Source: Ardenticatenaceae bacterium
Lineage (GTDB): Bacteria; Chloroflexota; Anaerolineae; Promineifilales; Promineifilaceae
NCBI GenBank assembly: GCA_020634245.1
Contig: JACKCC010000009.1
Span: forward strand, 346,100 to 378,099
Direction of reading: 5' to 3'
Length of the DNA: 32,000 bases
Position 1 is the first letter of the stretch, and every line of letters starts with the position of its first letter. Under the pieces are notes generated by a model. The model was not told where the DNA came from, searched no databases, and saw nothing but the letters and a program-made list of their open reading frames with translations. Shown here in pieces: positions 1-31,894 of this stretch. Position numbers and translations under genes: made by a program.

Positions 1-3000
1 TTCACCACTTTGGGAATCAGGTCGCTGTCCGGCTTGAGGCGGATGAGGGCATCGAGGATGAGGCCGTCGGTGCGGCGATTGGAGTGCAGCATCAGGTAGG
101 CTTCGTCGCCGTAAGAAGTGGTGAAGTTGGCGGCAGCGGCCGTTTCCACGGCCCGGTTTTGCAGATGGCGGTAGATGTCGGCCGATTCAGCCGTATCGGA
201 CAGAACCGGCCACAACCAGGCCAACCCTTCCAACGGCCAATCGTCGATGGCGATTTCATTGTAGAGCTTTTGCGCTTTGACCGGATCGGTGTCGCCCATC
301 AACTGGCGCACGTACAGGGCGTAGGCGCTCAGGCTGCGGCGGATTTCCGGGCCGTAGTACGATGGGTAGTAGGATTCGATGTTGCGCAAATATTCCAGCG
401 ACTGCTGCATCATCGATTCGGGCACGTCGAACCCTTTGGTGCGGGCCATCATCAGGGCGTGGGCGACGTAGATGCTGTGGTAGGGGATAGATTCGTCGCC
501 ACGTTTCCAGACCGGGAAGCCGCCGTCGTAGTTTTGCATCCCTTGCAGCTTTTCGATGCCGCTGGCGACGCTGACTTCCATGGCCGCCGGGCTGGGCAGG
601 CCTTCAGCTTCAAAGGCGGTCAGCACGTCGCGCAGGGCGGCAATAGCCATAATACGCGAGGCGGTTTGCTCGGAACATTCAAAGCGGTAGGTGGTCAGGT
701 ACAGGACGGCGTCGGTTAATGCTTGCAGGGCGGTGGAGGAGGTGTTGATTTCCAGCCCGCCAAACTGGGTGAAAACGTTGTCGGGCACAGCCACCGGCTG
801 GGCGATGGCCCCCTCGTCAATGACGCCGTAGGTGGCGAAGGCTTCGGTCGTGGCCGGGGTGTAGACGGGTAATTCGATTGTGGCGGCGTCGGCGTAGTTG
901 CCGGAAACGGCCGCTACCTGAATCCGCGCCGTGCCCGGGTCAAAAGTCGTCGTCGGGAAGCGCACTTCCACCCGGTCGTTGGCCGGGACGGTGACGCTTT
1001 GACCGGCGGCGTCAAGCAGTTCCAGGTTGGAAACCTGGGCGACGACTTGGACTTCCAGCGGATCGTCAGTCTGGTTTTGGACGACGATGGGTAGTTCAAA
1101 TCGGTCGCCGAAGTTGAGGAAGCGCGGGGCTGACGGCCGTACCATCAACGGCAGTCGGGCAGTCAGATTAGATTCGGCCGTGCCAAACTGCTTACCACCG
1201 GCGACGGCCACGACCATGATGCGGTAGCGGGTCAGATTATCGGGCAGTTGGACTTCGACCTGGGCACGGCCGTCACTATCTGTGTGGACCGTTGGCGCAA
1301 AGGTGGCCAACGGATCAAAGTTGCTGCGCACCTGGATCGGTTGTTCGGCAGCATTGCCATTGGCCAGACCAAAAGCAGCTTCCTCTGCCGCCGGTTCTGC
1401 CATCGGCGCGGCCGATGGCATGGCCATCATGACTTCGCCTTCCATTACCGTGTCCGCGGTGGCTACAGCTTGACGGGCTACGGCACTTTTAACCTGGTCG
1501 CTCAAGGCTTGCGGGTTGGCCAGGACGATATTGGCCCGGCTGTAGTAGCTGTTGAGCCAGGCGGGGCGGTTGCTGTAAAAAACGCCCAGCGGATCGGCCA
1601 GTTGGTAATTGGAGAGGGCCAGAATTGCTTCATCAACAACCACAACGGCCAATTCAGCATCGGTGACGGGACGGCCGTTCGCATCCTGCACCGTCACGTC
1701 AACCACCGTCTGACCGCCCGGTTCCAGTTTGCTGTCCTGGGGTACGGCCGTAACCGAAAGCGTCCGGCTGTGCGGCGGGATGTTGAGATTGAGCGTGCCG
1801 GTGGCGTAGGCGGGACGCGGTGGAATGCCTTCAATCGGCTCGCCATCGTCGCCGGTGCGGGGTGATTCGCCCACCAAATTGACCTGGACGTTCAGGTTGG
1901 GGATGTGCGCATCTTCGATGGGAATACGCAGCGTGTAGGAGCTTTCCGCCATCTGGAAGCGCTCGGTGTACAAAATCCCATTGCGGGCGACGGTCAGCAG
2001 CCCTTCGGCCGGGCTAAAGGGAGCCAAAACGAGGATTTCGGCCGTGTCGCCGGGCTGGTAGCTCTCTTCGCTGGGGATGAGCGTGACGCTTTCCTGTTCG
2101 ACGTTGCGGGCCGGGGGACGTTGGCCGCCGCTGACCCAGCGAGTGAACTGGCTTTGGTTTTGCCGCCCCTGATCGTCGGTGATAACGGCCGTTATCAAAT
2201 AAGAGCCGCCCTTGTCCGTGTTAAAAGTGCAAACCACAGGCTCGTTGGCCGAAGTCACGCTGCACTCCTGCACGTCCACCGATTCCTCGCCCCACGACCC
2301 TTGACGATATTTCCATTCCTGCCGCGCGGCTGTTATTTTGATAGTCGTGCCCGCGACGGCATTGCCATCCAAATCGGTGACGATGGCTTCGATGTCCAGT
2401 GGTTTGCCCCGCTCGACGAAGGTGCGCTGGCTGCGAATGCCGACGTACAAATCGGACGGATGAACGAGCAGCGTCGTGCCCGCCGTCCACGCCTGCCGGT
2501 TGACGTCCATCACCGTTGCTTCGGCCAGGACACTGAACGGCCGTGGCGCGGTAATCTCGTCAAAATCGAGGCGCAGGAAATGCTCGCCATTGGCATCAGT
2601 CGTGCCGCTGAACGTCTGGTAGATGGTTTCGTCGCCATAACTGGGACCGCCGAAGTAGTCTGCCTCCATCGCATAGCCGTAATCAAACCACCACCAGGGC
2701 GACCAGGTGCCAAAGGTGAAGCCGGACCAGTTGGGCGGAGAGTAGCTGCTGGGCGACGAGGTCACGTTCCAGGTCACTTCAGCGTTGGGCAGCGGGCCGC
2801 CGGCGTAGTAGTTGGCAGATGTGGCCACAACCGCATGATCGCTGACGAAGTAGGGGCCGGTCGTTTCGTTGCGGGCCGTCACTTCAAATTCGGGGCGGCG
2901 GAATTCCTGAATTTGGAAGTTGTGGTAATAGTCACGGCCGTTCATGCCGCTGCCTTGAACAAACAATTGTAGGGTGGCGTAACCCAGATTGGTGTTGTCG

Positions 3001-5366
3001 GGCAGGGTGAAAGCCAGATCGAAACCGCCCAGGGCATTGAGCTGGGCCTGCCCGGTGAGCAGTTCGTTGCCCTGCGGCCCCATGACGGTGTAGGCAAGGC
3101 TCGTTCCCGAACCGGCAAACAAACTAACGTCACCGCCTTGCTTGTTGCCAATCTGCCGAATCCAACCCTTGACATGGACTTCTTCGCCGGGGCGGTACAT
3201 CTGGCGGTCGTCGAAGACGTACCAGCGCAGTTCATCGCTGGGCGGATTGGCGCTCCAGCCGTAATCGTCCCAGTAGTAGGGGCTGTTGGGCAGCATGGCC
3301 ACGTCGTCCCCTTGCCGGGCCACCAGATAGGTCGCGCCGCTGGACGGCAAATCAAGGCTGGTTGTGCCGTCGCTGCCGGTGGTGGCCTGGCCGCCGTTGG
3401 GTTCTAGTTGCACGGTCACGCCGGACAGAGGTGTACCATCTTGCAGCGCATTGGCCCAGACGACCATCTGGCTGTGATCGGTAAAGGCATCCAGGCCGAT
3501 TTGGGTGACCTGCACCCAGGCCTGCACCGGATACGGCCGATTCTGTTTGCTGCTCAGTAAGGAAGCCGGTGGTTCAACGATGACGATGAGGTGGCCGAAT
3601 TGGCCGTCGAGGGCTTGGGTCAGGTCAACGGCCGTTTCCGTCAACACATCATCCTGAGCATCCACGGTAATCGTCTCATCCAGCACCTTTTCGCCGGGCG
3701 GCGAGGGCCGGTTTTCTTGCCAATAATTGTCCAGATAATCGCGGTAAGCCCGCCAATCGGACGGCTCTACCCGGTAGGCGCGGACGTGAAGCTTGCTGTA
3801 GTTAATCGAATAGACGGTGAAAACGGGCTTGCTGGCCGATGGATCCAGGGTGATAAACTGGCTGTCGGGGCCGGAGAGGAATTCCGGCGCAGACCCGACC
3901 TTGAAGGTCAGCAGTTCTTCCTGGCCCAACGTCTGGCCGAACACATCCTGGATATCGCCGCTGACGCGGACGCGGTAGGTGGTGCGGCCTGCGGTCAGCC
4001 CTTGAATCTGGATGGTGCTGCCCATGATGTTGACGCTGGCTCCGGCCAGTTCAGGCGTGATTTGCAGCATCCCTTCCTGGAAAGCGGCGGGGTCGATGGG
4101 GTTGCTAAAGTTGATGATGAAGGGCGTCAATGGCGGACAGTCGCCTTGATTGTACCAGCCGCAGCTGTAATCGGTGATGCGCAGCGGCGGGTAGGTTTGG
4201 AAGCTGAATGACTGTACGGTTTCTGTCAGGCGCGGCCCTTCAGCGGAAGGTGTGCCGGGGCCGATAGTGACGTTGATACTGGCATCGGTGGGCAGTTCTT
4301 GTTGGGCACGGAAGACAAGGTAACGGCCGTCTCCTGCATTCTTTACCAACCGGCTGACTGTCTCGTCTTCGGTGATGTCGGAGTCACTGGCCAACTGCAC
4401 GGTGACGGTTTTGTTATCGGCCGTGACCTGAATCGTGTTCAAAACGGCCTGCGGGTCAATCAACTGGTCAAAGGAGACAAAAAAGAGCGGGTCTAACGCT
4501 ACCGAACCGCCGGAGGGGTAATAGTTTTGCATCTGCACCGGCGGCGTGCTGAACGTCCAGGAGACGGTTTGGGCCAGCGTGCCGCCCGTCGCCGATTGGG
4601 TTCCGGCCGGGATTTCGACAGTGAAGTTGGTGGCCATGGGCAGGCGGTCAACGGCCGTTGAATCATATTCAAAGCTCAACGTCTTCGTGCCTAACCAGAC
4701 CCATGTTCCGGGCAAATCGGGGGTGATATTGACGGGCACGTCGGCGGCGGTCAGCGCCTCCTGCGTCATCAGCGCCACCATCGGCTGGTTGAAGGTCACG
4801 TTGAGGAAAGGGGCCAGCGGGATTTCGCCTTCCGGCGAGTAGCGCAGCACTTCCAGCGGGCCGGAGGGCACTGCTTCGGGGACCACTTCCGGTGCAGGCG
4901 GCGGGAAGGATTCATCAATGATTGCGCCGGGGCGCGGTGGCGGAATCAGTTCGTCGGGCAAGTTGAAATCGACTTGATCGCCTTCTTCCGCTTCCAATGG
5001 CGGCAGACGGTCGAGGATTTGCTGGATTTGCTCGGCGCTCAATGGGTCGCCGGTGACGATGGAGATGGCCGGACCGGTTTGCTGCACTTCCTGCCCCTGG
5101 CTGAGGCGGAAGAGGAGCTGAGCACGGCTGCCACTAGTGCTGCTCCCACTGCTGCCTACAAAACCAGCATCAGTCACGACGACCCCTTGCTGACCGGAAT
5201 CGGTATTGACGACCGGGATGTCGATCATCACGCCCGGCTGGTTTAACCTGTAGCGGGTGACGGCGGTGTTGATACCGTAGCCAGCCCCGCCCAGAACGAC
5301 GATACCCAGCAGCGCCAACAACCAGTTGCGCGGCCGGGAAAGGATTTGCTGCCATTTTGGTTTCAT
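1..5366 (-). CDS. alpha-2-macroglobulin family protein (thioester-containing bacterial A2M); C-terminus lies beyond the left window edge
   Basis: Uninterrupted minus-strand frame from ATG 5366 down to position 3 (1788 codons). An in-frame TGA lies 5 codons upstream and AAGGGG about 8 nt upstream. It is absent from the ORF track because no stop lies in the window. N-terminal TM helix NWLLALLGIVVLGGAGYGI. A2M-type motifs LPDNLTRYRIMVVAVAGGKQFG and PRFLNFGD. Thioester motif C-S-E-Q is encoded at 666-677. The + strand ORFs at 84-5246 are antisense shadows of this gene. Confidence 0.85.
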   Translation of the reverse strand, partial: MKPKWQQILSRPRNWLLALLGIVVLGGAGYGINTAVTRYRLNQPGVMIDIPVVNTDSGQQGVVVTDAGFVGSSGSSTSGSRAQLLFRLSQGQEVQQTGPAISIVTGDPLSAEQIQQILDRLPPLEAEEGDQVDFNLPDELIPPPRPGAIIDESFPPPAPEVVPEAVPSGPLEVLRYSPEGEIPLAPFLNVTFNQPMVALMTQEALTAADVPVNITPDLPGTWVWLGTKTLSFEYDSTAVDRLPMATNFTVEIPAGTQSATGGTLAQTVSWTFSTPPVQMQNYYPSGGSVALDPLFFVSFDQLIDPQAVLNTIQVTADNKTVTVQLASDSDITEDETVSRLVKNAGDGRYLVFRAQQELPTDASINVTIGPGTPSAEGPRLTETVQSFSFQTYPPLRITDYSCGWYNQGDCPPLTPFIINFSNPIDPAAFQEGMLQITPELAGASVNIMGSTIQIQGLTAGRTTYRVRVSGDIQDVFGQTLGQEELLTFKVGSAPEFLSGPDSQFITLDPSASKPVFTVYSINYSKLHVRAYRVEPSDWRAYRDYLDNYWQENRPSPPGEKVLDETITVDAQDDVLTETAVDLTQALDGQFGHLIVIVEPPASLLSSKQNRPYPVQAWVQVTQIGLDAFTDHSQMVVWANALQDGTPLSGVTVQLEPNGGQATTGSDGTTSLDLPSSGATYLVARQGDDVAMLPNSPYYWDDYGWSANPPSDELRWYVFDDRQMYRPGEEVHVKGWIRQIGNKQGGDVSLFAGSGTSLAYTVMGPQGNELLTGQAQLNALGGFDLAFTLPDNTNLGYATLQLFVQGSGMNGRDYYHNFQIQEFRRPEFEVTARNETTGPYFVSDHAVVATSANYYAGGPLPNAEVTWNVTSSPSSYSPPNWSGFTFGTWSPWWWFDYGYAMEADYFGGPSYGDETIYQTFSGTTDANGEHFLRLDFDEITAPRPFSVLAEATVMDVNRQAWTAGTTLLVHPSDLYVGIRSQRTFVERGKPLDIEAIVTDLDGNAVAGTTIKITAARQEWKYRQGSWGEESVDVQECSVTSANEPVVCTFNTDKGGSYLITAVITDDQGRQNQSQFTRWVSGGQRPPARNVEQESVTLIPSEESYQPGDTAEILVLAPFSPAEGLLTVARNGILYTERFQMAESSYTLRIPIEDAHIPNLNVQVNLVGESPRTGDDGEPIEGIPPRPAYATGTLNLNIPPHSRTLSVTAVPQDSKLEPGGQTVVDVTVQDANGRPVTDAELAVVVVDEAILALSNYQLADPLGVFYSNRPAWLNSYYSRANIVLANPQALSDQVKSAVARQAVATADTVMEGEVMMAMPSAAPMAEPAAEEAAFGLANGNAAEQPIQVRSNFDPLATFAPTVHTDSDGRAQVEVQLPDNLTRYRIMVVAVAGGKQFGTAESNLTARLPLMVRPSAPRFLNFGDRFELPIVVQNQTDDPLEVQVVAQVSNLELLDAAGQSVTVPANDRVEVRFPTTTFDPGTARIQVAAVSGNYADAATIELPVYTPATTEAFATYGVIDEGAIAQPVAVPDNVFTQFGGLEINTSSTALQALTDAVLYLTTYRFECSEQTASRIMAIAALRDVLTAFEAEGLPSPAAMEVSVASGIEKLQGMQNYDGGFPVWKRGDESIPYHSIYVAHALMMARTKGFDVPESMMQQSLEYLRNIESYYPSYYGPEIRRSLSAYALYVRQLMGDTDPVKAQKLYNEIAIDDWPLEGLAWLWPVLSDTAESADIYRHLQNRAVETAAAANFTTSYGDEAYLMLHSNRRTDGLILDALIRLKPDSDLIPKVV

Positions 5367-5544: not shown

Positions 5545-5609
5545 GGGATTACCAACAGTTCACGGTTTTTGATCCGGTTATTTTTTATTTGGGGAGTGTA
5601 CGGCCGTTA
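5545..5609. repeat. Copy A of a shared ~70-bp upstream element (partner at 10530-10604)
   Basis: GGGATTAcCAACAGTTcAC..GGTTTTtGATCCGGTTaTT..TTT.AT.GGGG.GTGTACGGCCGTT aligns with 10530-10604 apart from a 10-nt insertion and a few mismatches. It lies about 180-240 nt upstream of the A2M start on the gene's 5' side. Confidence 0.6.
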
Positions 5610-6670
5610 CGCATTATAACAAAGTCTGGAAACCAACCGCAGCCGGGGGAAAAGGGGCACGGCCTAAGACCGGTCATAGCCAGGCGGGCCGTTTTTGTCG
5701 CTGTGACTGTATGTGTAATCAAGGCAACCCGAGTCGGTTCAGGCATAGGCGTTGCCGTTCCGCAAGCCGCTTACCATAGCAAAATCAGGAGCAAGAAAAA
5801 AACGCTATTTGTTTTCATGCTGTCGTTATAATAACAGTTGTATTACGCTAAGGCTATGAAATTATTGGCCGTTGATTTCTTGCCACCCAAGCGCCCCGCC
5901 CACAGTATTTGTTGCAATCTCAATGACTGTATTATCATGTATGCTAATCAGAATAAGACTGTTGACAACAACATCATCATAGAGAGGGTGGTTTGTCAAT
6001 GCAAGCCAATTTCCATCAGGTGAAAGTGATAGCCAAGACCACGAATCGGTTACATCGGTTAAAGAATAGATTAACCGTTTTTCAAAAGTGCTTGTATCAA
6101 TCTCATATACAGAACCTGTGTCTTGCATTTGTTCCACATAATAAATGTACTCACTATTATCTCCCCAAATTGGGCTATATAGCATACCAATAGGCAATTC
6201 AACTAATTGAGTAATCACAGTCCCGTCAGAATTGATGAGCATTAATCTCGCTTCTGGTTCTCTATCATCTTCTTGAATAAATAGAAGTTGCATATTATCT
6301 GGAGATCGGGACAGGTAAGAAGCTCCTGGGAATCCATTTAGTGGCAAACGAAGTTCTTCATGATAAACTCTTTTTTCTTCTAACCCGTTTTGCCCTATTT
6401 CAACTGTGTAAACTCCATCATCATCTCCGCCACATACAAGATAACCAGAATAACGAATTGCCATACTGAATGATGAACCAGTAGGAGACCAACTAATGGA
6501 AGCACAACCTGATAGCGGGAGAAGTTGCGTTGTTGATGTTGAGCCAAGATCCATCCATCCACCCTCCCACTTTACAACCCAAATTGCCAACCATTCTTGA
6601 TCGTTTGACCAACTAACAGGAACATACACAGTAATATCTGGATCATCTTGAGAAAGCCCTTCTAGCTCAT

Positions 6671-6678
6671 TTTCCCAG
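6671..6678. repeat. Target-site duplication TTTCCCAG (left copy)
   Basis: Identical 8-mer directly abutting both ends of the IS (6671-6678 and 7653-7660). Confidence 0.85.
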
Positions 6679-7652
6679 GGCTCATGTTTAGTACAAGTGA
6701 TCGGGTAAAATAGCCAATATGGACTTTCCAATTGTTGACCTAATGGACCGCGCTTCCTGCGAGGCATGGATAGAAACATATTTTCATCCTGATGGCCTGA
6801 AATGTCCCCATTGCGGGGCGTCATTGGAGCAAGGTCGCTGGTTTCGCCGTACCCAAAAGAGCGACCTCGATGTGTACCGTTGTCAGGAATGCAAAGGCAT
6901 CTACAACTTGTACAGCAATACGGTCTTTGAAGGCCGTTATTTTCGCCCAGAGCAAACGGTCTTGTTTATCCGAGGCGTTTGTCAGGGGAAACCGACGGCA
7001 CAGTTGGCCCGGGAATTGCGTATCAGCCGCACAACAGCGACGGAAGTACGACATCAGTTGCAAGCCAACGCCGAAATAGAACAACCAGAAACCCCACTGG
7101 AAGATGAAGAAGTAGAAACCGACGAGATGTTCCAAAATGCGGGGGAAAAAAGGTGAATGGCATGGTGACCCAGATGACCCGCCCCGTCGTCGCGCCAACA
7201 AACGGCGCGGCCGAGGCACATACACCAATGACCGGCCGCCGGTTTGTGCAGTCATTGGTCGCCAATCACGGCAAGTGCGTATCCGCGTGGTGCCCAACAC
7301 CCAAGGGGTCACATTGTGTCCTTTTGTCGAGAAGTTTACCAAAGCTGATGCTACCTTATACACAGACGAGTATGACAGTTACAATCGGCTCAAACGTATC
7401 CGTTACACCGTCTGTCATAGTCAAAACGAATGGGCGCGAGATGATGATGGTGATGGAATCCGTGAGGTTCATGTGAATTCTAATGAGGGCGGTTGGACAG
7501 GATTACGCAATTTCTTGCGGCCTTTTCGCGGGGTCCACAAAAAGCACCTGCCCGGCTACGTTGCCATTCATGAATTTGCCGTCAATCAGAAATGTGTATC
7601 TCCCAAATTCATCGCTTCTATCGTTCGTTTGCACTAGTTCTAAACATGAGCC
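6679..7652 (+). mobile_element. IS1595-family (ISXO2-like) insertion sequence, 974 bp
   Basis: Terminal inverted repeats GGCTCATGTTTAG (6679-6691) and CTAAACATGAGCC (7640-7652) are 13/13 perfect, with imperfect extension. Flanked by an 8-bp direct repeat. Encodes a zinc-ribbon plus DDE transposase. About 1 kb size and 8-bp duplication fit the family. Confidence 0.85.
6719..7637 (+). pseudogene. IS1595-family transposase, split into two frames (6719..7156 and 7137..7637) by one extra A in an A6 run
   Basis: N-terminal zinc ribbon CPHCG...CQEC, then VETDEMFQNAGEK, then PPRRRANKRRGRGTYTNDRPPV...LYTDEYDSY. Deleting one A from 7146-7151 gives a continuous ...QNAGEKGEWHGDPDDPPRRRANK... Confidence 0.8.
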
Positions 7653-21438: not shown

Positions 21439-21470
21439 TGCTGGAATAAGGTTCATCAATCTTCTTTAAC

Positions 21471-23343: not shown

Positions 23344-26300
23344 ATGAAGAAGATCAGTTTATTGTTAGTGCTGTTGATAGTTCTAATAGCTGCACTCCCA
23401 GCAGCAGGCCAGGAAGGACCTGACCTTCAGACACCGGCAGATGTAGTTAACAGCATCAACGCAAACAAAACAAAGTCAGTGTATCTTGTCCTGATGCGCG
23501 ACGATCCGGTTATTGCCTATGATGGCAATATTGGCACTTTGCAAGCCACTCAACCGGCGGAAGGGGAAAAAATCGATCCTGACAGCTATCACGTTTTAAG
23601 ATACGCGACCTACATTAAAGCCGGGCACAATCAGGCTTTGGCTGCGGCCGGTGTAAACCTGGATGCCAAGCTTTATGATTACGTTTACTCTGTTAACGGC
23701 TTCGTAGCTCAATTAACCGAGGCTGAGGTTGCTGCACTGGAAGGCCAGGCAGGTGTTATGGCTGTTTACCAAGACGAACTTCGTTACCCCCAAACAGACA
23801 ACACCCCTGATTTCCTCGGCATTGCCGATCGTGGTGGTGCCTGGGCTGCTGGTTACACTGGTGAAGATGTTGTGGTTGGTGTCATTGATACCGGCATCTG
23901 GCCAGAACACCCCAGCTTCTCCGACACAGCAATGCTGTGCGTGAATGCCGATGGCGACACACGCGAACCCAACAAATACGGCAATTGCCGCCGTGGATAC
24001 GAGCTAACAGAAGTGGTAGTTTACGGCCCTGCGCCAGCATCCTTTACTGCTACAACTTGTGATTTTGGTAACACAGCTTTCAATCCGCTGGATGCTCCTT
24101 TCACCTGCAACAACAAACTCCTGGCCGCCCAATCCTTTGGTTTAGGTTACCATGGTGGAACCGGCGCGGGAACGCCTCCGGGATCATATCTGTCGGCTCG
24201 TGATGCCGACGGTCATGGTACGCACACAGCCAGCACGGCCGCCGGTAACAAAGATGTTCCGGTTACCCTCCAAGGCAGTGAATTGGATCCCATTAGCGGT
24301 ATGGCTCCTCGCGCCCGCATTTCCGTCTACAAGGCTTGCTGGGACGGGTGTGCTGTTTCTGACCTGGTGGCCGCTATTGACACGGCCGTTGCCGATGGTG
24401 TTGACGTCATCAACTACTCCATTGGTTCCAGCTCCTACCTCGTTGGCCCAGACGATGTTTCCTTCCTCTTTGCTGCTGATGCTGGCGTATTTGTCGCCAC
24501 ATCTGCTGGTAACAATGGCCCTGGCGCCAGCACCGTTGGTTCACCGGCTTCTGTGCCCTGGATTACGGCCGTTGCCGCCACCACCCAGAACCGCAGCTTC
24601 GACAGTATCATCACTTTGGGTAATGGCGCTCAATACATTGGTACAGGCATTGGCGTAACCGGAGAACTGCCGCTAGTTGATGCAGCCGCTGCCGGTGATG
24701 CACTTTGCAACATTGGCGCTCTGAATCCGGCCGTTGTCTCCGGCAACATCGTCCTCTGCTTGCGCGGTGCAATTCCGTTGGTTGACAAAAGCCAGGCCGT
24801 TTTGGAAGCTGGTGGTAAAGGTTTGATCCTCTACAATGCTTCCGCCGCTCAAACACCTTACCTGACGTCACATGCAGTTCCCACCGCTCACACAACCTAT
24901 GACGTTGGTGTCGCTGTAAAAGATTACATCGCCGCCGCCGGCAGCTCAGCAACGGCTTCCCTCTATGGTGGCATTTACGTTGATAGCCCGGCCCCATGGA
25001 TGGCCAGCTTCTCATCACGTGGTCCCAACCTGCAGTCCTCCGACATTATCAAACCGGACATCGCTGCACCTGGGTTTGGTATCCTGGCTGGCTACACACC
25101 GACACCATTCACTGGCGCACCGGATGAAATGTTTGCTGTTATCCAGGGTACTTCCATGTCCAGCCCGCACATCGCTGGTATCTTTGCCTTGATCAAACAA
25201 GCGCATCCAGACTGGAGCGCTGCCATGGCCAAATCGGCGATGCAAACCACAGCCTTCAACACTTCTGCACAAGACAATTTCATTATGAAAGAAGATGGTG
25301 TGACACCGGCAGATCCCTTTGATGTAGGCGCGGGTTTTGTGAATATGGCTGACAAAGCTCTCAAGCCAGGCTCCATTTTTGAACCAGGTCTCGTTTATGA
25401 CGCTGGCCTCTTCGAATATGCTGGCTATACCTGCGGTGCTAACCTGGGTGTATTTACCACCGGCACCTGCAACTTCCTTAATGCCATTGGCGTCCCCAGC
25501 GATCCCAGCGATCTGAACCTGGCTACCATTGGCGTTGGTGAATTGGTCGGCACACAAACTGTGTACCGTACAGTTACCAGTGTCGCCAAGACACAACGCA
25601 CTTTCAAGGTTTACGCTTTTGCACCCGATGGATTTGATGTCACGGTTACTCCGGACAAACTCAAGTTGGCTCCTGGTGAATCAGCGACATACGCTGTTAC
25701 CATCACCAATGACGGCACGGCCGTTGAAGGTGAATGGGCCTTCGGACGGTTAGAATGGCAATCTGGCAGCTACAAAGCAACCAGCATCATGGCTGTTCGT
25801 CCCTATCCGTTCGCCGGACCAGCTGAAGTCTCCGGCACCGGTGCCAGCGGTTCCGCCAGCTTCGACGTCCAGTTCGGGTTCGATGGCAATTACTATGCCA
25901 ACGCCCATGGTCTGGAAGCGGCCAGGTTAACCCCCGGTAATGTCGCCGATGATCCGGGTAACTCTTTCACCCCCTTCGGCCCAGGTACAACCCTGCACAT
26001 GATCAACGTACCTGTGGGATCGGCCTATGCCCGCTTCTCGCTGTTCGATGACTTCACCGACGGTGCTGATGACCTCGATTTGTACGTTTACTACCCAACT
26101 GGTGCATTTGCCGGTGGCAGCGGTTCAGGCACTTCAGCCGAACAGGTTGATGTACTCATGCCGATGGCTGGCGATTACTATGTATTCGTACATGGTTGGG
26201 GCACTGATGGGCCAGACGCGAACTACACGTTATTCGACTGGTCTGTATCATTGACCCCTGGCGGCAGCTTGAGCATTGACTCTGCTCCTACAGCCGGTAC

Positions 26301-26427
26301 GGTTGGCAGCATCGGCACCATCGATATTAGCTGGACTGGTCTCGCAGCCGGTAAATATCTCGGTGCTGTTTCACACGCCACTGATGACGGCCTCGTCGGA
26401 CTGACCGTTGTTAGTGTTGAAAATTAA
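23344..26427 (+). CDS. Secreted subtilisin-like serine protease (S8A): I9 propeptide, PA-domain insertion, Fn3-like domain and C-terminal pre-peptidase-like domain
   Basis: ATG at 23344 after AGGA. Signal peptide MKKISLLLVLLIVLIAALPAAG. Catalytic Asp in VGVIDTGI (codon 23887), His in DGHGTHTAS (codon 24214), Ser in GTSMSSPH (codon 25153). The long insertion between His and Ser is typical of PA-domain subtilases. Confidence 0.85.
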   Translation: MKKISLLLVLLIVLIAALPAAGQEGPDLQTPADVVNSINANKTKSVYLVLMRDDPVIAYDGNIGTLQATQPAEGEKIDPDSYHVLRYATYIKAGHNQALAAAGVNLDAKLYDYVYSVNGFVAQLTEAEVAALEGQAGVMAVYQDELRYPQTDNTPDFLGIADRGGAWAAGYTGEDVVVGVIDTGIWPEHPSFSDTAMLCVNADGDTREPNKYGNCRRGYELTEVVVYGPAPASFTATTCDFGNTAFNPLDAPFTCNNKLLAAQSFGLGYHGGTGAGTPPGSYLSARDADGHGTHTASTAAGNKDVPVTLQGSELDPISGMAPRARISVYKACWDGCAVSDLVAAIDTAVADGVDVINYSIGSSSYLVGPDDVSFLFAADAGVFVATSAGNNGPGASTVGSPASVPWITAVAATTQNRSFDSIITLGNGAQYIGTGIGVTGELPLVDAAAAGDALCNIGALNPAVVSGNIVLCLRGAIPLVDKSQAVLEAGGKGLILYNASAAQTPYLTSHAVPTAHTTYDVGVAVKDYIAAAGSSATASLYGGIYVDSPAPWMASFSSRGPNLQSSDIIKPDIAAPGFGILAGYTPTPFTGAPDEMFAVIQGTSMSSPHIAGIFALIKQAHPDWSAAMAKSAMQTTAFNTSAQDNFIMKEDGVTPADPFDVGAGFVNMADKALKPGSIFEPGLVYDAGLFEYAGYTCGANLGVFTTGTCNFLNAIGVPSDPSDLNLATIGVGELVGTQTVYRTVTSVAKTQRTFKVYAFAPDGFDVTVTPDKLKLAPGESATYAVTITNDGTAVEGEWAFGRLEWQSGSYKATSIMAVRPYPFAGPAEVSGTGASGSASFDVQFGFDGNYYANAHGLEAARLTPGNVADDPGNSFTPFGPGTTLHMINVPVGSAYARFSLFDDFTDGADDLDLYVYYPTGAFAGGSGSGTSAEQVDVLMPMAGDYYVFVHGWGTDGPDANYTLFDWSVSLTPGGSLSIDSAPTAGTVGSIGTIDISWTGLAAGKYLGAVSHATDDGLVGLTVVSVEN

Positions 26428-26459
26428 CGACTAAGTCGTTAACTCTCGACGATTAGATG

Positions 26460-26494
26460 GAAGGGTGCTCTGTAAAAGGGCACCCTTCTTTTTT
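26460..26494 (+). terminator. Rho-independent terminator of the protease gene
   Basis: Stem GAAGGGTGC (26460-26468) / GCACCCTTC (26480-26488), followed by TTTTTT (26489-26494). A second small palindrome TTAACGAC-TAA-GTCGTTAA spans the stop codon (26424-26442). Confidence 0.8.
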
Positions 26495-26523
26495 ATTAAA
26501 AGATGTTGTTCGATTTACGGCCG

Positions 26524-27799
26524 CGCGTTGCCTCAATAGAAAATGTTACCGAAGGGGTAGTCGTTGCCTCAAAAAGCATGTTACTTTCCCAATCGCACTA
26601 ATTGCTTCACTTTCTCATCAATATTGCGGCGGCATTGAGCCGGATTGGTGTCCCGATATGTCGCCTGCCACAGGTCACTATTTTCAGGCGAAAGCAGCTT
26701 CATGTCCAATACCCGTTGCAAGGGCGTCTTGGGCGTTTCATACTTCTTGTACACCTTCGCGCCGGTACGCTTTTTGCTCACCAACTTGAAGGTTGGCTGA
26801 AATAGATTGGTGTAGAGATGTAACTCAGCATAGATGTCACCCAGCAATTGGTGAGCCGCCTGGGATTCAAACCGTTGATAGCCAATGGTGTGGCGCACAA
26901 TTGACCAGTTTTTCTGTTCAACAAAACATTGGTCGTTTTTCTTGTAAGGGCGACAACGGGTGAAGGTAATCTTGTGCATTTGGCAATCGTTCAGAATCAG
27001 GTCATTGATAAAGACACTGTCATTGTCAGAATCAATGCCCAAAAGTGGAAAAGGTAAACGTTGTCGTAGCTGGTCTAGCGCCTCAGTCACAGCGATTTGT
27101 GAGCGGTGCCGTAAGCTGAAACACTCCGTCCAGCCAGTGGCCACATCGGTGGCGGTGAAGGAGCATAGAAACTGTCCGGCTGTACTTTCACCACAGTGAG
27201 CCACCAGGTCTATCTCGACAAATCCGGCTTGAGTGTCATCCCAGTCTGCAAAGGTGCGTACCGGGATTTGGTGTTTGAGCAGCCCCCCAGGCTTCGTCGT
27301 ACTTTGACCCCGCTGCTGGCTGGTCTTGAACGGCTGTAACAATCGGTCAATGGTGGCCGGACTAACCGCCAAGACCAGCCTCTTGGTTTCCTGATCCAGC
27401 GCGAGTTCCTGATGTCGCTCCAGGGAAGTGACCATATCGGCCAAGATAGGCTGGAGCCGCTTGCCGCAGATACCGCCACAAATGCGCCAGATTTGGGTCA
27501 GGGCGCTCACCACGCTGCCTGTATAGATTTTCTGCCGACCACGACGCTCTCGCTTTGGCTGATTTTGTTGGCGCAGGCGGCGGATCGCTGCCTTGCGGTG
27601 TAGGCCGGTTACAGCCACAAACTCATCCAAAATCTTTGTTTTCTCTTTGCGGTCTGCTTTGAGGTATCTCGGTTGCAGACGCTGGACTAACTCTCGTTTA
27701 CTGTGTTGACTCATTTTCGCATCCATCATGGTTGCGAAGGTAACACTTTTTATGATTCAACGACCCTTTCTTGGGTAACATTTTTTTTGAGGCAATTCG
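26524..27799 (-). mobile_element. 1276-bp single-gene rve-type transposable element with ~70-bp composite ends
   Basis: Each end has two ~21-bp sites. Left: TTGCCTCAATAGAAAATGTTAC (26528-26549) and TTGCCTCAAAAAGCATGTTAC (26564-26584). Right, as reverse complement: TTGCCTCAAAAAAAATGTTAC (27775-27795) and TTGAATCATAAAAAGTGTTAC (27740-27760). Flanked by direct GGCCG at 26519-26523 and 27800-27804. Confidence 0.7.
26581..27729 (-). CDS. DDE transposase with integrase-core (rve) fold; IS family uncertain (ISNCY/IS481-like)
   Basis: 382 aa. N-terminal HTH-like KRELVQRLQPRYLKADRKEKTKILDEFVAVTGLHRKAAIRRL. Candidate catalytic residues in VEIDLVAH, LLGIDSDNDSVF and KKNDQCFVEQKN. Confidence 0.7.
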   Translation of the reverse strand: MMDAKMSQHSKRELVQRLQPRYLKADRKEKTKILDEFVAVTGLHRKAAIRRLRQQNQPKRERRGRQKIYTGSVVSALTQIWRICGGICGKRLQPILADMVTSLERHQELALDQETKRLVLAVSPATIDRLLQPFKTSQQRGQSTTKPGGLLKHQIPVRTFADWDDTQAGFVEIDLVAHCGESTAGQFLCSFTATDVATGWTECFSLRHRSQIAVTEALDQLRQRLPFPLLGIDSDNDSVFINDLILNDCQMHKITFTRCRPYKKNDQCFVEQKNWSIVRHTIGYQRFESQAAHQLLGDIYAELHLYTNLFQPTFKLVSKKRTGAKVYKKYETPKTPLQRVLDMKLLSPENSDLWQATYRDTNPAQCRRNIDEKVKQLVRLGK

Positions 27800-27824
27800 G
27801 GCCGTTTCCCCATCTGCTGTATAA

Positions 27825-28837
27825 TAAACATTATCGGCAATAAGAAAAAGGTGGATACAATTCTCGGCCATGTTGACCTATGAATTGCTGAAAACGAAAC
27901 CAAAAGAATTTCTGAGCGCAACCGGGATGACCATTGTTGAGTTTGAGCGGTTGCTGCCAGCCTTTGCCCAGGCTTATGAGACGCGGTACCGTGACGATAC
28001 GACAGTAGCCGGCACACCGCGACAGCGTCGAGCCGGTGGTGGCGCCAAAGGCAAGCTGCAGCGGATAGAAGACAAACTGCTCTTTAGCCTGGTGTATCAA
28101 AAGACGTATCCCTTGCAGACGATGCAAGGTTTGCACTTTGAGATGAGCCAATCCCAAGCCAACGAGTGGATACATCGTTTGTTGCCCGTGTTGCAAAAGG
28201 CGCTGGCGACACTGGAGATGAAACCAGAACGGGAAGCGAGTGGGCTGACCACCGGTGACGCTTTGTTGACAGAACCGGCCGACTTGTTGATAGATGGCAG
28301 TGAGCGTCGGCGGCAACGGCCCAAGGACAACCAGAAACAGCGCCAACATTACAGCGGCAAGAAGAAAGCGCATACGGACAAGAACCTGCTGATAGCCAAT
28401 GGCCAAACGAACCGGGTGCTCTATCTCAGTCCAACCGAACCCGGCCACACCCACGACAAGAAAATGGCTGACAACGCCAACATCACCTACCCTACGGCGA
28501 CCACGCTGGGCCAGGATAGTGGCTTTCAAGGGTATCAGCCGTCCGGCGTGGCCCTGACACAGCCAAAAAAAGCCTAGAGGTAAAGAGTTGATCGCCGAGG
28601 ATGTCTTTCTGAATCGCATCATTTCTGGTTTCAGGATCGAGGTCGAGCATGTGATTGCCGGGGTTAAGCGGTGTCGAATTATCAAGGATACATTTCGCAA
28701 CACCAAAGAGGGGTTTTCTGACCTGGTTATGGAAGTTGCCTGTGGCTTGCATAACCTGCGGGTGACTTGCCGTCATCCAGTACCCTCTTTGGATCTGCTT
28801 GACCTGTGTACCTGACCACTATTACCGATAATGTCTA
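27825..28837 (+). mobile_element. IS5-family (DDE_Tnp_4 type) insertion sequence, ~1 kb; ends approximate
   Basis: Inverted repeats ACATTATCGGcAATA (27828-27842) and TATTaCCGATAATGT (28820-28834). The flanks are AT-rich, so the exact termini and target duplication cannot be fixed by eye. Confidence 0.6.
27870..28815 (+). pseudogene. IS5-family transposase split (27870..28577 and 28588..28815) by one extra A in an A7 run
   Basis: HTH_Tnp_4-like N-terminus (KLLFSLVYQKTYPLQTMQGLHFEMSQSQANEWI). DDE_Tnp_4-like core (LIDGSERRRQRP...YSGKKKAHTDKN...GFQGY...NRIISGFRIEVEHVIAGVKRCRII...ACGLHN). Deleting one A from 28565-28571 gives ...TQPKKPRGKELIAEDVFLNRIISG... Confidence 0.75.
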
Positions 28838-28883
28838 ATATTAATCAACAAACCAACCATCCCACTCAAAATCGGAGCAATTG

Positions 28884-30707
28884 ATGTACGAATCATTCGG
28901 CGCCGTCGTCACCGGCAATCAAGTGACTTTTAAGTTATTCCTGCCCGACAATGCCGTCGATCCGGCCCAGTACACGCGCGGCGGTTCACCCAAAATTAAG
29001 GAAATTCGCATTCGCGGCGATTTTCAAAACGCATTAGGTGGCGAAGATTGGGCGCTGGAGAGCGCTCCGGCAATGGTCAAAGAGGCCCACCCGCATGGCT
29101 GGCTGTGGAACTGCACTTTGCCAGACGACCTGCCCGAAGGCTATTACCAGTACAAATATTTCGTCACCTTTGAAAATGACACTGACCGCTGGATTACCGA
29201 CCCCTGTACCAGATACGGCGGCAGCGACGGGCAGGAAAATTCAGCGTTTGTGGTGGGCGGCAGCACGGCCGTTGTCCAACCCATTGCCCATCGCCTGCCG
29301 CCGCAAGATTTGGTTTTGTACGAGTTGATGATTGACGATTTTACGGCCGAGTTTAGAAACGGCCGTGCCCCCATCGACGCCATCCACGACAAAATAGACT
29401 ACTTGGTCGAGTTGGGCGTCAACGCCATCGAATTCATGCCCTGGACCGCCTGGCCCGGCGACGACTTTAGCTGGGGTTACGATCCCTTCCAGTTTTTCGC
29501 CGTTGAGTACCGCTACGTCCACGATAACGCACAGCCAGCCGACAAAATCTTCCGCCTCAAGCAGTTAGTAAACGCCCTGCACGAACGGGGTATCCACGTT
29601 ATTATGGATGGTGTGTTCAATCACGTGCGCGCCGGGGTAAACCCTAACAAAGGTTTTCCCTATTTCTGGCTTTACCAAAATCCAGAAGAGTCGCCCTACA
29701 TCGGCCAGTTTGAGCGCGGCGGCTTCTTTGAAGAGTTTGATTACAATAATGAATGTACCCAGGAATTCATCCGTGACGTGTGCTTCCATTGGCTGGACAT
29801 GTACAAGCTTGATGGCATCCGCTTTGATTTTACGATTGGCTTTTACAATCCTGGGAATGTGCATGAAGGTATCACCCAACTGATTGCTGATATCAAAACC
29901 CATATGTCTGAACAAGGGCGGGAAAATGTGGCTCTTATTGTGGAGCACTTAAGCGACAATCGCTTCGAAGCGATTGATGCCGCCAATAAAATGGACGCCA
30001 CCGCCTGCTGGTTTGACCCGTTTATGTATCAATCGCAGGCGTATGCGCGTTACGGCCGTATCGACTCCCAACTTCTACGCATCCTGGACGCCAACCGCGA
30101 CTTTGCACCAGGGAAACTGCCCGTCACCTACGTCGAAAACCACGATCATTCCACTATTGTCAGCGAAGCCGGAGGACGTAACCATTGGTACAAAACCCAG
30201 CCAGCCGCTATCGCCCTACTCACATCGCCAGGGCTGATCATGCTGCACAACGGTCAGGAATTCGGCGATGATTACTGGCTGCCGGGTGATGGTGCGGGAC
30301 GGGTGCAGCCACGGCCGTTACACTGGGACATATTCAGCCAGGATTTCGTTGGCCAGCGCTTGTTTGGCATCTATCAAAAACTTATTGCTATCCGAAAATC
30401 ACACCCTATTCTCCGCTCCCGCAATTACTTTCCAACAGAGAATGACCCTGACGGCTATGGGGTTGTCAACGATCAAGTTGTGGTATTTCACCGGTATGGC
30501 AACGACGAGAACGGCCGTTTCCAACGTTTCATCATCGTCATCAACTACAGCGACAGCAGCCAAACCATCGATATCCCCTTCTCTGGCAATGGCCTGTGGC
30601 AAGATTTGCTCAACGACAAAGCGGATTTTGTCCAGAATTATCGTTTATACTATCAACAGATCCCCTCCAATTGGGGTCGTATCTATTTCCAAAACAGTGA
30701 ACAGTGA
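28884..30707 (+). CDS. GH13 alpha-amylase-family glycoside hydrolase with N-terminal CBM48/E-set-like domain
   Basis: ATG at 28884 after GGAG. N-terminal beta-sandwich (VTFKLFLP...IRIRGDF...YQYKYFV). GH13 conserved regions I (VIMDGVFNHV), II (LDGIRFDFT), III (LIVEHL) and IV (YVENHDH). No signal peptide. Confidence 0.8.
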   Translation: MYESFGAVVTGNQVTFKLFLPDNAVDPAQYTRGGSPKIKEIRIRGDFQNALGGEDWALESAPAMVKEAHPHGWLWNCTLPDDLPEGYYQYKYFVTFENDTDRWITDPCTRYGGSDGQENSAFVVGGSTAVVQPIAHRLPPQDLVLYELMIDDFTAEFRNGRAPIDAIHDKIDYLVELGVNAIEFMPWTAWPGDDFSWGYDPFQFFAVEYRYVHDNAQPADKIFRLKQLVNALHERGIHVIMDGVFNHVRAGVNPNKGFPYFWLYQNPEESPYIGQFERGGFFEEFDYNNECTQEFIRDVCFHWLDMYKLDGIRFDFTIGFYNPGNVHEGITQLIADIKTHMSEQGRENVALIVEHLSDNRFEAIDAANKMDATACWFDPFMYQSQAYARYGRIDSQLLRILDANRDFAPGKLPVTYVENHDHSTIVSEAGGRNHWYKTQPAAIALLTSPGLIMLHNGQEFGDDYWLPGDGAGRVQPRPLHWDIFSQDFVGQRLFGIYQKLIAIRKSHPILRSRNYFPTENDPDGYGVVNDQVVVFHRYGNDENGRFQRFIIVINYSDSSQTIDIPFSGNGLWQDLLNDKADFVQNYRLYYQQIPSNWGRIYFQNSEQ

Positions 30708-30772: not shown

Positions 30773-31894
30773 ATGCATTTCAATCTTGTTTTTGAGGGGG
30801 GTGGCGCCAAAGGCATGGTTTTTGTTGGGGCCATGCAAGAATTCGAACGGCGCGGGCATACGTACGGCCGTTTACTGGGCACATCCGCCGGAGCTATCAC
30901 CGCCGCCCTTCTAGCCGCCGACTTTTCAGCCACGGAAATGATGGAGCAGGTCAACGAAAAACTACCCGATGGTTCGCCCCGCTTTTCCACTTTCATGGAC
31001 GTGGCCGACGCCATCGCCGACCAGGATTGGGAAAACAGTGTCCTATTTAAGCTGTTTCAACAAATTGATTGGCCTTTCATCCCCGAAGCGGCCGAACGCC
31101 GCATGGATGATCGCGTGTTCAATCAATTTATGAAACTCAAGGTTTACCGGCTGATATTCACCTTCCTGGAATTGGGCGGCCTGTACGCTGGCGATGCCTT
31201 CCTGGCCTGGCTGCGGGAAAAGTTGGATATGAACGGCCGTAACCTGGGCCGCGCCACTTTAGCCGAATTTTACGAACACACCGGTAAAGACCTCAGCGTT
31301 GTCGCCTCAAACACCACCAACGGCGATATTTTGGTGCTCAACCATCGCACCGCCCCAAAATGCCCGGCGGCCTGGGCCGTGCGCATGTCCATGAGCATCC
31401 CCTTCATCTGGCGTGAGGTGCGCTGGAAAGGCGATTGGGGATTGTATGACGGCCGTGACATCACCAATCACGCCATTGTCGATGGCGGCCTCAACTCCAA
31501 CTTCCCCATTCGTCTGCTCATTTCTCGCAGTCCCGATGTCACCGACGTAATGGGACCGCACGATGGCGCGTTTGCCCTGGGTATGCTCATCGACGAAACG
31601 TTACCCGTCCCCAACGCTCCGGCCCTCCGCCAACACAAAGAGGTTGATCCCAAGTCGCCAATGGCTATTCCCAATCTGCCCATTGTGCGCCGCGTATCCA
31701 ACCTGGTAAACACAATGACCAACGCCCACGACAAAACGGTCATCGAAGCTTACAAAGACGGCGTCTGCCGCCTGCCGGCCCAAGGGTATGGCACCACGGA
31801 ATTCGACATGAGCGATGAACGAGTTACCGCATTGGTAAACGCCGGTCAACAAACAATGAGTAACTTCTTTAATAACTTTGATCTAAGAAAATAA
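30773..31894 (+). CDS. Patatin-like phospholipase
   Basis: Oxyanion G-G-G-A-K-G, nucleophile G-T-S-A-G, and catalytic Asp in V-D-G-G-L. GGAGG lies 5 nt upstream of the ATG. Confidence 0.8.
   Translation: MHFNLVFEGGGAKGMVFVGAMQEFERRGHTYGRLLGTSAGAITAALLAADFSATEMMEQVNEKLPDGSPRFSTFMDVADAIADQDWENSVLFKLFQQIDWPFIPEAAERRMDDRVFNQFMKLKVYRLIFTFLELGGLYAGDAFLAWLREKLDMNGRNLGRATLAEFYEHTGKDLSVVASNTTNGDILVLNHRTAPKCPAAWAVRMSMSIPFIWREVRWKGDWGLYDGRDITNHAIVDGGLNSNFPIRLLISRSPDVTDVMGPHDGAFALGMLIDETLPVPNAPALRQHKEVDPKSPMAIPNLPIVRRVSNLVNTMTNAHDKTVIEAYKDGVCRLPAQGYGTTEFDMSDERVTALVNAGQQTMSNFFNNFDLRK

Follow-up and report, generated by a model that had tools for sequence, protein, structure and literature searches.

Results

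Gene content of the locus and distribution of the palindrome

The locus analysed here (the window) is a 32 kb stretch of DNA from an activated-sludge MAG of class Ardenticatenia (Chloroflexota). It holds genes for an A2M/MG2-family protein, two lipoprotein paralogs, an alpha/beta hydrolase, a rhodanese, a thioredoxin reductase, Thioredoxin_3 and YgaP-like proteins, a Crp/Fnr protein, a DUF5667 anti-sigma-like protein, a membrane protein of 403 aa, a cytochrome c, an S8 subtilase, an alpha-amylase-family protein and a patatin, in addition to three transposase genes. Across the window, the eight-base palindrome ACGGCCGT occurs exactly 47 times, as had been counted in an earlier note on the sequence. 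The copies, the reading of each coding copy and the two longest stretches devoid of the word are as follows:

1133..1140, copy in the A2M/MG2-family gene (- strand), read V-R-P
1266..1273, copy in the A2M-family gene, read D-G-R
1671..1678, copy in the A2M-family gene, read N-G-R
1744..1751, copy in the A2M-family gene, read T-A-V
2185..2192, copy in the A2M-family gene, read T-A-V (context GATAACGGCCGTTATC)
2537..2544, copy in the A2M-family gene, read P-R-P
2934..2941, copy in the A2M-family gene, read N-G-R
3628..3635, copy in the A2M-family gene, read T-A-V
4323..4330, copy in the A2M-family gene, read D-G-R
4651..4658, copy in the A2M-family gene, read T-A-V
5600..5607, intergenic copy (upstream of the A2M-family gene)
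5608..8092, second longest stretch without the word (2.5 kb, GC 0.46), holding an IS1595 transposase gene (7137-7637, +)
8093..8100, copy in lipoprotein paralog A, read T-A-V, in the 278-bp duplicated segment
8324..8331, intergenic copy (leader of paralog A), in the duplicated segment
9788..9795, copy in PD40 lipoprotein paralog B, read T-A-V, duplicate of 8093
10019..10026, intergenic copy (leader of paralog B), duplicate of 8324
10272..10279, copy in a hypothetical 135-aa gene, read T-A-V
10595..10602, intergenic copy
10705..10712, copy in the alpha/beta hydrolase gene, read T-A-V
10978..10985, copy in the alpha/beta hydrolase gene, read T-A-V
11277..11284, copy in the alpha/beta hydrolase gene, read H-G-R
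11552..11559, intergenic copy
11818..11825, copy in the rhodanese gene, read D-G-R
12337..12344, copy in the thioredoxin reductase gene, read T-A-V
13958..13965, intergenic copy (leader of the Thioredoxin_3 gene)
15344..15351, intergenic copy, directly after the stop codon of the YgaP-like gene
15509..15516, intergenic copy
16151..16158, copy in the Crp/Fnr gene, read N-G-R
16237..16244, copy in the Crp/Fnr gene, read T-A-V (context GGCAACGGCCGTTGCC)
17791..17798, copy in the DUF5667 anti-sigma-like gene, read T-A-V
17974..17981, copy in the DUF5667 gene, read T-A-V
20018..20025, intergenic copy
20605..20612, copy in the 403-aa membrane protein gene, read T-A-V
20817..20824, copy in the membrane protein gene, read K-R-P
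21565..21572, copy in the cytochrome c gene, read T-A-V
22240..22247, copy in the cytochrome c gene, read T-A-V
22454..22461, intergenic copy
24382..24389, copy in the subtilase S8 gene, read T-A-V
24565..24572, copy in the subtilase gene, read T-A-V
25717..25724, copy in the subtilase gene, read T-A-V
25725..29264, longest stretch without the word (3.5 kb), holding an rve-type transposase gene (26581-27729, -) and a DDE_Tnp_4 transposase gene (27870-28577, +)
29265..29272, copy in the alpha-amylase-family gene, read T-A-V
29359..29366, copy in the amylase-family gene, read N-G-R
30052..30059, copy in the amylase-family gene, read Y-G-R
30311..30318, copy in the amylase-family gene, read P-R-P
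30511..30518, copy in the amylase-family gene, read N-G-R
30864..30871, copy in the patatin gene, read Y-G-R
31233..31240, copy in the patatin gene, read N-G-R
31449..31456, copy in the patatin gene, read D-G-R

Four of these copies (8093/8324 and 9788/10019) are two pairs created by a local 278-bp duplication, which leaves 45 independent sites. The extended form AACGGCCGTT occurs 14 times, while ACGGCCGTTTCC occurs 5 times as written and 2 times as its reverse complement. The earlier note had placed the copies at 5600, 8324, 10019, 10595, 15344 and 22454 in leaders, after stop codons or in spacers, and these sites are indeed intergenic. Its estimate of the near-matches, however, requires a minor correction: CGGCCG occurs 76 times, leaving 29 sites that are not the full word, and of these only 17, rather than about 23, differ in a single flanking base, with 12 differing in both.

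Over-representation of the word

The observed count of 47 (1.47/kb) was compared with several expectations. A dinucleotide shuffle expects 0.73 copies (maximum 3 in 100 shuffles), and Markov models of orders 0-3 expect 0.57, 0.61, 1.34 and 2.17, respectively, corresponding to observed/expected ratios of 22-82; the Poisson probability of at least 47 copies, given 2.17, is about 3e-45. The next most frequent palindromic 8-mer has 3 copies, and the only more frequent canonical 8-mers are overlaps of the word itself. A maximal-order Markov model, as proposed in the earlier note, gives 40.5 expected copies and is uninformative, because the 7-mers and 6-mers consist almost entirely of the word itself.

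A DNA-level feature with consequences for proteins

In order to determine whether the word reflects a protein motif, codon usage or a dispersed repeat, we examined its placement relative to genes and the sequence around it. Its density is equal in coding (1.42/kb) and intergenic (1.71/kb) DNA, and the 47 copies comprise 20 read as T-A-V, 13 as x-G-R, 4 as x-R-P and 10 intergenic sites, such that all three reading frames are used and 79% of copies lie inside genes. Shuffling synonymous codons yields 4.0 ± 2.0 in-gene copies against 37 observed. Apart from the local duplication, the flanks do not align (median identity 30%), and information content falls to background beyond about 4 bases on each side. 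As a control, the word CGAGCTCG in Gaiellaceae is explained by composition (37 against 27 expected), but the present word is not.

The word has also reshaped proteins. In loci rich in the word (hereafter carrier loci), 149 of 152 Thr-Ala-Val tripeptides (98%) are spelled ACGGCCGT, where codon use predicts 14%, and the tripeptide is 6.1 times more common than amino-acid composition predicts. In non-carrier relatives the corresponding values are 1.03 times and 1 of 23.

Distribution among relatives, origin and conservation of sites

The word is just as abundant (0.5-2.8/kb) in about ten related species, where it is likewise the most frequent palindromic octamer, and reaches 2760 per Mb in one of them (L004). 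These carriers form one clade of Ardenticatenia (MAGs labelled Ardenticatenaceae or Promineifilaceae) in a thioredoxin reductase tree, which rests on a single gene. The distribution is nonetheless patchy: the word is absent from sister lineages and from one lineage, L008, that nests among the carriers in this tree, while two others (L240 and L020) possess weaker or imprecise versions. About 70 control loci have 0-2 copies. The word is present in independent assemblies from NCBI, JGI, ENA and Logan.

Alignment of thioredoxin reductase indicates that sites arise by substitution rather than insertion. Seven related species share the T-A-V site at 12337..12344, and it aligns without gaps to T-S-I, T-N-I or T-S-V codons in relatives without the word. 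Sites are created through 2-4 simultaneous changes, including amino-acid replacements. Furthermore, sites are conserved well beyond background: 12 of 12 are shared at 89% nucleotide identity, against 46% for all 8-mers, and other pairs give 4/5 against 26%, 3/3 against 17% and 3/4 against 13%.

A symmetric 16-bp motif and its variants

The preferred site is a symmetric 16-bp palindrome, GGnA-ACGGCCGT-TnCC. The same flank preferences appear upstream and downstream in coding orientation, and also in intergenic sites, and the two half-sites are not negatively correlated. The CGGCCG core is the part least tolerant of change: its single-base variants are depleted (110 in 405 kb against about 166 expected from non-carrier relatives), while variants at the outer position are enriched. 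Per variant type, transitions are more frequent than transversions (52 in 3 types against 58 in 6 types), and all classes are depleted similarly.

Mobile DNA and candidate enzymes

The three transposase genes of the window carry no copy of the word, although this absence is only marginally significant (about 3.5 copies expected in 2.4 kb). In contrast, contigs that look like mobile elements carry 2-3.5/kb. Motif scans of about 0.6 Mb of carrier DNA, which is a very small sample of gene content, revealed no C5 or N4/N6 methyltransferase and no Vsr signature, and no reader protein or competence gene has been identified.

Discussion

The data presented here support the central reading of the earlier note, namely that ACGGCCGT behaves as a highly iterated palindrome and is not a protein motif, a repeated gene or part of a larger repeat. 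As inferred from 32 kb of this genome and roughly 20-kb samples of its relatives, the word is scattered through these genomes about once every 400-700 bases. It is a close parallel to HIP1 (GCGATCGC) and its cyanobacterial variants (GGGATCCC, TCGATCGA, CAGGCCTG), whose high abundance is described only in cyanobacteria in the HIP1 papers consulted; no earlier description of the present word was found in the literature searched. Its density and over-representation fall in the HIP1 range quoted by Elhai 2015 and Xu 2018 (for density, 300-2700 per Mb). As with HIP1, the octamer occurs in genes in all frames and in spacers, is created by substitution, is conserved above background between genomes, is spread patchily across a clade, has palindromic extensions and encloses a classic type II methylation site. 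It differs from HIP1 in the word itself (core CGGCCG instead of CGATCG/GATC), in the phylum, and in that no cognate orphan methyltransferase has been identified in the limited DNA scanned.

Other over-represented words provide further points of comparison. The DNA uptake sequences (Neisseria DUS, Pasteurellaceae USS, Campylobacter methylated RAATTY) similarly occur at about one copy per kb in either orientation, have a strongly conserved core with graded flanking preferences, are tolerated in coding DNA at the price of amino-acid changes, are restricted to a clade and are expected to be missing from newly acquired DNA; DUS and USS are not palindromic. Chi sites are over-represented 5-8-mers that mark self DNA for the recombination machinery, and a Chi-like role has been proposed for HIP1 (Kamoku and Nielsen preprint). 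Known Chi sites are asymmetric and oriented with replication, are less dense when they are 8-mers, and none is palindromic. The Dcm/Vsr-driven bias of CCWGG in E. coli also shifts the abundance of a methylation-site word by directional repair, but that effect is modest and specific to T:G mismatches, whereas the enrichment here is 20- to 80-fold.

We consider it somewhat more likely than not that ACGGCCGT is a lineage-specific, HIP-class element that is read on double-stranded DNA by a two-fold symmetric sequence-specific protein or enzyme pair. In this inferred scheme, DNA carrying the site does better than DNA lacking it, and near-matches are steadily converted into matches. By analogy with HIP1, for which there is precedent for a methylation-dependent role in transformation or recombination (Kamoku and Nielsen preprint), the most likely version is a self-DNA tag, probably methylated at the CGGCCG core, which would favour tagged DNA during exchange, recombination or repair in the manner of an uptake signal or a Chi site. 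Recently arrived insertion sequences would then lack it, while long-resident mobile elements would carry it. This mechanism is not shown, and natural transformation is not known for these uncultured filaments.

A link to CGGCCG methylation or mismatch repair, as suggested in the earlier note, remains a conjecture. A purely mutational drive, in which a CGGCCG-specific m5C methyltransferase and a Vsr-type very-short-patch (VSP) repair nuclease convert T:G mismatches in near-cognate sites towards the methylated word, would be in keeping with the constraint on this EagI-class core, with the depletion of near-cognate core variants and with the presence of the word on resident mobile elements, as expected for a process acting on all DNA in the cell. 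It nevertheless appears unlikely, since VSP repair corrects only T:G and should specifically deplete the C>T/G>A variants, which is not what is observed. Nor does a 6-bp methyltransferase explain the A/T flanks or the graded symmetric preference out to 16 bp; the creation of sites through 2-4 simultaneous changes, and the absence of C5 methyltransferase or Vsr motifs from the roughly 0.6 Mb scanned, also speak against it. Binding sites for an abundant nucleoid-associated or chromosome-organising protein, kept by ordinary selection for chromosome folding or segregation, would correspond to the structural role that Xu et al. 2018 proposed for HIP1, for which a periodicity argument has been made. 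A symmetric 16-bp motif with graded information is typical of a dimeric DNA-binding protein, and the conservation of sites fits this view, yet we regard it as similarly improbable: the word is equally or more dense on contigs resembling plasmids or conjugative elements, L008 has no such sites, and no regular spacing is seen (gap CV 1.08, roughly exponential), though 32 kb is too short to test this and the spacing neither supports nor excludes an architectural role.

A footprint of a defence system, in which the word is the protected (methylated) form of a restriction target or a host nuclease spares DNA rich in it, could account for its absence from recently mobile IS genes and its presence in long-resident elements. 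However, targets of active restriction systems are normally avoided in the host genome, whereas CGGCCG is enriched (76 in 32 kb against about 11 per 16-21 kb in non-carrier relatives). A restriction role was tested and rejected for HIP1 (Kamoku and Nielsen preprint), and no restriction-modification gene was seen in the DNA examined, making this very unlikely. Copies of a small mobile or REP-like element, a protein motif, a codon-usage effect or an assembly artefact may appear to be suggested by the duplicated pairs and by T-A-V being the commonest reading, but these are refuted by the unalignable flanks, the gap-free alignments in relatives, the use of three frames and spacers, the synonymous shuffle and the independent assemblies.

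It is possible, though doubtful on present evidence, that this is an independent, convergent HIP system outside the cyanobacteria, in which a dedicated symmetric reader of the 16-bp site drives accumulation of its own recognition word across chromosomes and resident mobile elements of Ardenticatenia, as a self-recognition tag for DNA exchange or recombination. If so, HIP-type tagging is a general bacterial strategy rather than a cyanobacterial oddity, and L008 would offer a natural control for finding the genes responsible.

In practical terms, the word offers a simple marker for binning and host assignment of contigs, plasmids and phages of activated-sludge Chloroflexota, and for flagging recently acquired DNA. 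HIP1 has been an open puzzle for about thirty years, and a second instance, with a different word in an unrelated phylum, makes the question comparative: any gene family shared by the two carrier clades, and missing from their non-carrier relatives, becomes a candidate for the machinery, including orphan methyltransferases, uptake or secretion systems, and repair nucleases. The case also shows how strongly such a word can bend protein sequences, as seen in the over-representation of Thr-Ala-Val in carrier loci.

Abundance of the word

In what follows, a genome or locus in which the word ACGGCCGT is abundant is termed a carrier, and a relative in which it is not is termed a non-carrier. As the earlier note had reported, ACGGCCGT occurs exactly 47 times in the 32,000-base window. 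Dinucleotide-preserving shuffles give a mean of 0.73 copies and never more than 3, while Markov models of order 0 to 3 expect 0.57, 0.61, 1.34 and 2.17 copies, so that the excess is 22- to 82-fold (Poisson P about 3e-45). No other palindromic 8-mer exceeds 3 copies, and the only 8-mers with comparable counts are overlaps of the word, such as AACGGCCG. The maximal-order Markov test proposed in the earlier note gives an expectation (40.5) that is close to the observed count only because the 6- and 7-mers are made of the word itself; since that test cannot decide the matter, lower orders and codon-aware shuffles were employed instead. Of 76 CGGCCG cores, 47 carry the A...T flanks, 17 differ in one flank and 12 in both, and the figure of about 23 one-flank variants in the earlier note is thus slightly off.

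The 8-mer CGAGCTCG looked like another iterated palindrome in control loci from Gaiellaceae and other Actinomycetes (L067, L082, L071 and L058). It occurs 20-37 times per 21 kb at a GC content of about 0.70, yet a third-order Markov model already expects 15-27 copies. Hence, this is a composition and codon effect, and it serves as a useful negative contrast.

The window derives from an uncultured member of the class Ardenticatenia, phylum Chloroflexota. Window positions 2195-23188 match 21 kb of contig JACKCE010000011.1 of assembly GCA_020634195.1 in reverse (locus L001, the other assembly of the same organism). All 133 mismatches and 153 gap columns between the two assemblies fall in the 4.5-kb stretch matching window 17000-21500, where the gene calls in L001 are fragmented. 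These indel-rich differences initially resembled strain variation; however, they look like unpolished long-read error and were not used for evolutionary inference. No tRNA or Rfam family lies in the window. Genes of the window include the following:

12195-13175, - strand, thioredoxin reductase gene, identical to a protein of a MAG labelled Ardenticatenaceae bacterium
7618-8226, - strand, lipoprotein gene, paralogous to the next
8668-9819/9921, - strand, lipoprotein gene, paralogous to the preceding
17401-18771, gene for a DUF5667 anti-sigma-like protein that ends in a long low-complexity tail of NGDGN repeats followed by a glycine-rich run

Relation to repeats, coding sequence and protein composition

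Pairs of sites share only 30% identity (median) over 80 flanking bases. The exceptions are two pairs (8093/9788 and 8324/10019) that belong to a local duplication of a 278-bp segment at 97.8% identity (window 8090-8366 and 9785-10061), which covers the leader and the first codons of the two paralogous lipoprotein genes. The two proteins share an identical 46-residue N-terminus, and each copy of the segment carries two ACGGCCGT sites 231 bp apart. In the related MAG HK-STAS-CHLO-30 (locus L002), several intergenic copies of a dispersed repeat of 90-210 bp were observed at 13040-13380 and 19560-20150, with 80-92% identity and some of them inverted. With a curated gene map of the window, 20 copies of the word read Thr-Ala-Val, 13 read x-Gly-Arg, 4 read x-Arg-Pro and 10 are intergenic, and the density is 1.42/kb in genes and 1.71/kb in spacers. 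Shuffling synonymous codons while keeping every protein sequence gives 4.0 +/- 2.0 in-gene copies (maximum 10 of 300), against 37 observed. The word is therefore neither a repeat element nor a protein motif.

The word bends both codon choice and protein sequence. In about 51,000 codons from ten non-redundant carrier loci, Thr-Ala-Val occurs 152 times against 24.9 expected from amino-acid composition, and 149 of these are spelled ACGGCCGT, where codon usage predicts 14%. In twelve related non-carrier loci the tripeptide occurs 23 times against 22.4 expected, and one is spelled that way. The gene calls behind these figures are crude (longest open reading frames), although the contrast is far too large to depend on that. 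In thioredoxin reductase, the copy at window 12337 aligns without gaps to T-S-I, T-N-I, T-S-V or T-T-V codons in other species; here the word was made by several substitutions, including amino-acid replacements.

Distribution and conservation

A scan of one genome per species, anchored on thioredoxin reductase, returned 80 loci. Together with loci obtained through close homologues, the word is abundant in about ten species, the loci of which span GC contents of 48-59%.

Table. Density of ACGGCCGT in carrier loci
Locus; density
L002/L013; 1.67/kb
L004; 2.76/kb
L007; 0.65/kb
L011; 1.72/kb
L012; 1.49/kb
L014; 2.38/kb
L017; 1.10/kb
L018; 1.41/kb
L020; 0.80/kb
L030; 2.01/kb
L240; 0.48/kb

L002/L013 and L011 are about 98% identical and so nearly the same organism. 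The close relatives L008, L015, L016, L019 and L022 have 0-1 copies, and about 70 loci from other phyla have 0-2. In a neighbour-joining tree of thioredoxin reductase the carriers form one clade, with L008 (GCA_034409055.1) nested inside and the other non-carriers outside. This suggests one gain and at least one loss, although it is a single-gene tree and L008 shows no clear leftover excess of Thr-Ala-Val (3 against 2 expected, which is inconclusive). One MAG, reached through protein P0101, has a weaker version of the word. In the weaker carriers L240 and L020, the half-decayed, one-flank variant ACGGCCGA/TCGGCCGT is as frequent as the perfect word (14 against 10, and 8 against 7, respectively). 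This could mean decay of the system or a shifted flank preference, and it recalls the 'imprecise HIP1' of some cyanobacteria.

A metagenome scan for three clustered copies mostly returned other things, and only about nine loci behave like this word. L168, L155, L193, L164 and about 30 short metagenome contigs (Ga0056108, Ga0056133-35, Ga0209259, Ga0209459) hold non-coding arrays of a different 16-bp palindrome, GTACACGGCCGTGTAC, at 5-18 copies per kb with spacings of 12, 23, 25 and 45 bp. This is a satellite-like repeat of unknown origin that shares the 8-mer but not the flanks of the Chloroflexota motif. Contig L143 (Ga0102925_1021296) holds a CRISPR-like array of about 30 units spaced 68-72 bp apart, the repeat of which (GTTTCAATGGCCTGAACGGCCGTGCTGTTGCAAC) contains the word, echoing the HIP1-containing CRISPR1 repeat of Synechocystis.

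Word sites are conserved between carriers beyond the background of all 8-mers, which is the behaviour that Xu et al. reported for HIP1. In the near-identical trio L002/L011/L003, only one of about 30 sites differs, where about five substitutions per pair would be expected.

Table. Conservation of word sites between pairs of loci
Pair; nucleotide identity; word sites shared; all 8-mers conserved
L004 / L012; 89%; 12 of 12 (P about 8e-5); 46%
L017 / L018; 80%; 4 of 5; 26%
L001 / L007; 79%; 3 of 3; 17%
L018 / L030; 77%; 3 of 4; 13%

Anatomy and variants of the motif

The information content falls off symmetrically on either side of the word: position -1 is A in 53-76% of sites, with T at +1 to match, and positions -4 and -3 are G in 50-64%, with C at +3/+4 to match. 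The same preferences appear upstream and downstream when sites are oriented by the gene that contains them, although those positions fall in different codon positions, and they also appear in intergenic sites. Furthermore, the two half-sites are independent or positively correlated, never alternative. The preferred site is thus a true 16-bp palindrome, GGnA-ACGGCCGT-TnCC, which points to recognition of double-stranded DNA by a two-fold symmetric protein, rather than by a 6-bp enzyme with sharp edges.

In 405 kb of carrier DNA there are 844 perfect copies. Variants at the outer position number 353, about five times the density in non-carrier relatives, while variants at the three core positions number 110, against about 166 expected from those relatives. 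The CGGCCG core is therefore essential and the flanks are preferred, and near-cognate words seem to be drained into the perfect word. Transitions are not selectively missing (52 in three types, compared to 58 transversions in six types), and the pattern is not the T:G-specific signature of very-short-patch repair.

Mobile DNA

The two longest stretches without the word, 25725-29264 and 5608-8092, hold transposase genes:

7137-7637, IS1595 transposase gene, in the stretch 5608-8092
26581-27729, rve transposase gene, in the stretch 25725-29264
27870-28577, DDE_Tnp_4 transposase gene, in the stretch 25725-29264

The region around the IS1595 gene is also low in GC (about 0.45, against 0.52 for the whole window). 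None of the three genes carries the word, so they look like recent arrivals. Conversely, a scan of the viral collection for three clustered copies returned 28 stretches, many of which carry 1-3.5 further copies per kb. Contigs filed as viral (L096/L101, L092, L098, L117, L118 and other IMG/VR contigs) carry the word at 2-3.5 per kb. Most of their large open reading frames have no family match; where families could be assigned, they look like plasmid or conjugative functions (ParA, an FtsK/SpoIIIE-like translocase, a lytic transglycosylase and a ParM-like actin), and these contigs are probably plasmids or conjugative elements of carrier hosts rather than phages. It seems, therefore, that long-resident mobile elements share the word and recently mobile insertion sequences do not, although the statistics for the latter are weak.

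Possible mechanism and relation to HIP1

A directional, DNA-level force creates and preserves the word; it acts on chromosomes and on some mobile elements, is specific to one clade and reads a symmetric site. The agent itself is inferred, and HIP1 is the only closely comparable system. HIP1 is recognised by orphan methyltransferases, and recent experiments show that it raises natural transformation in a methylation- and homology-dependent way, and not through restriction; uptake-signal-like and Chi-like roles have been proposed for it. We therefore favour, though only tentatively, a self-DNA tag, probably methylated at CGGCCG, that gives tagged DNA an advantage in exchange, recombination or repair. 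Regular-expression scans for C5 methyltransferase motifs I and IV, the N4/N6 (D/N/S)PP(Y/F/W) motif and the Vsr motif found nothing in the carrier loci, the viral-collection loci and the metagenome loci.

Among the alternatives, a function-free repair drive ranks ahead of binding sites of a chromosome-organising protein, and a defence footprint ranks behind both. A repeat element, a protein motif, codon usage and an artefact are excluded.

In contrast to the tentative mechanism, we are highly confident that this is a HIP-class element. The HIP1 papers consulted treat cyanobacteria only, and no description of this word as an iterated palindrome was found in a literature search that did not reach most subscription journals, so that an earlier mention cannot be excluded. 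We consider the element to represent the HIP phenomenon with a new word in a new phylum.
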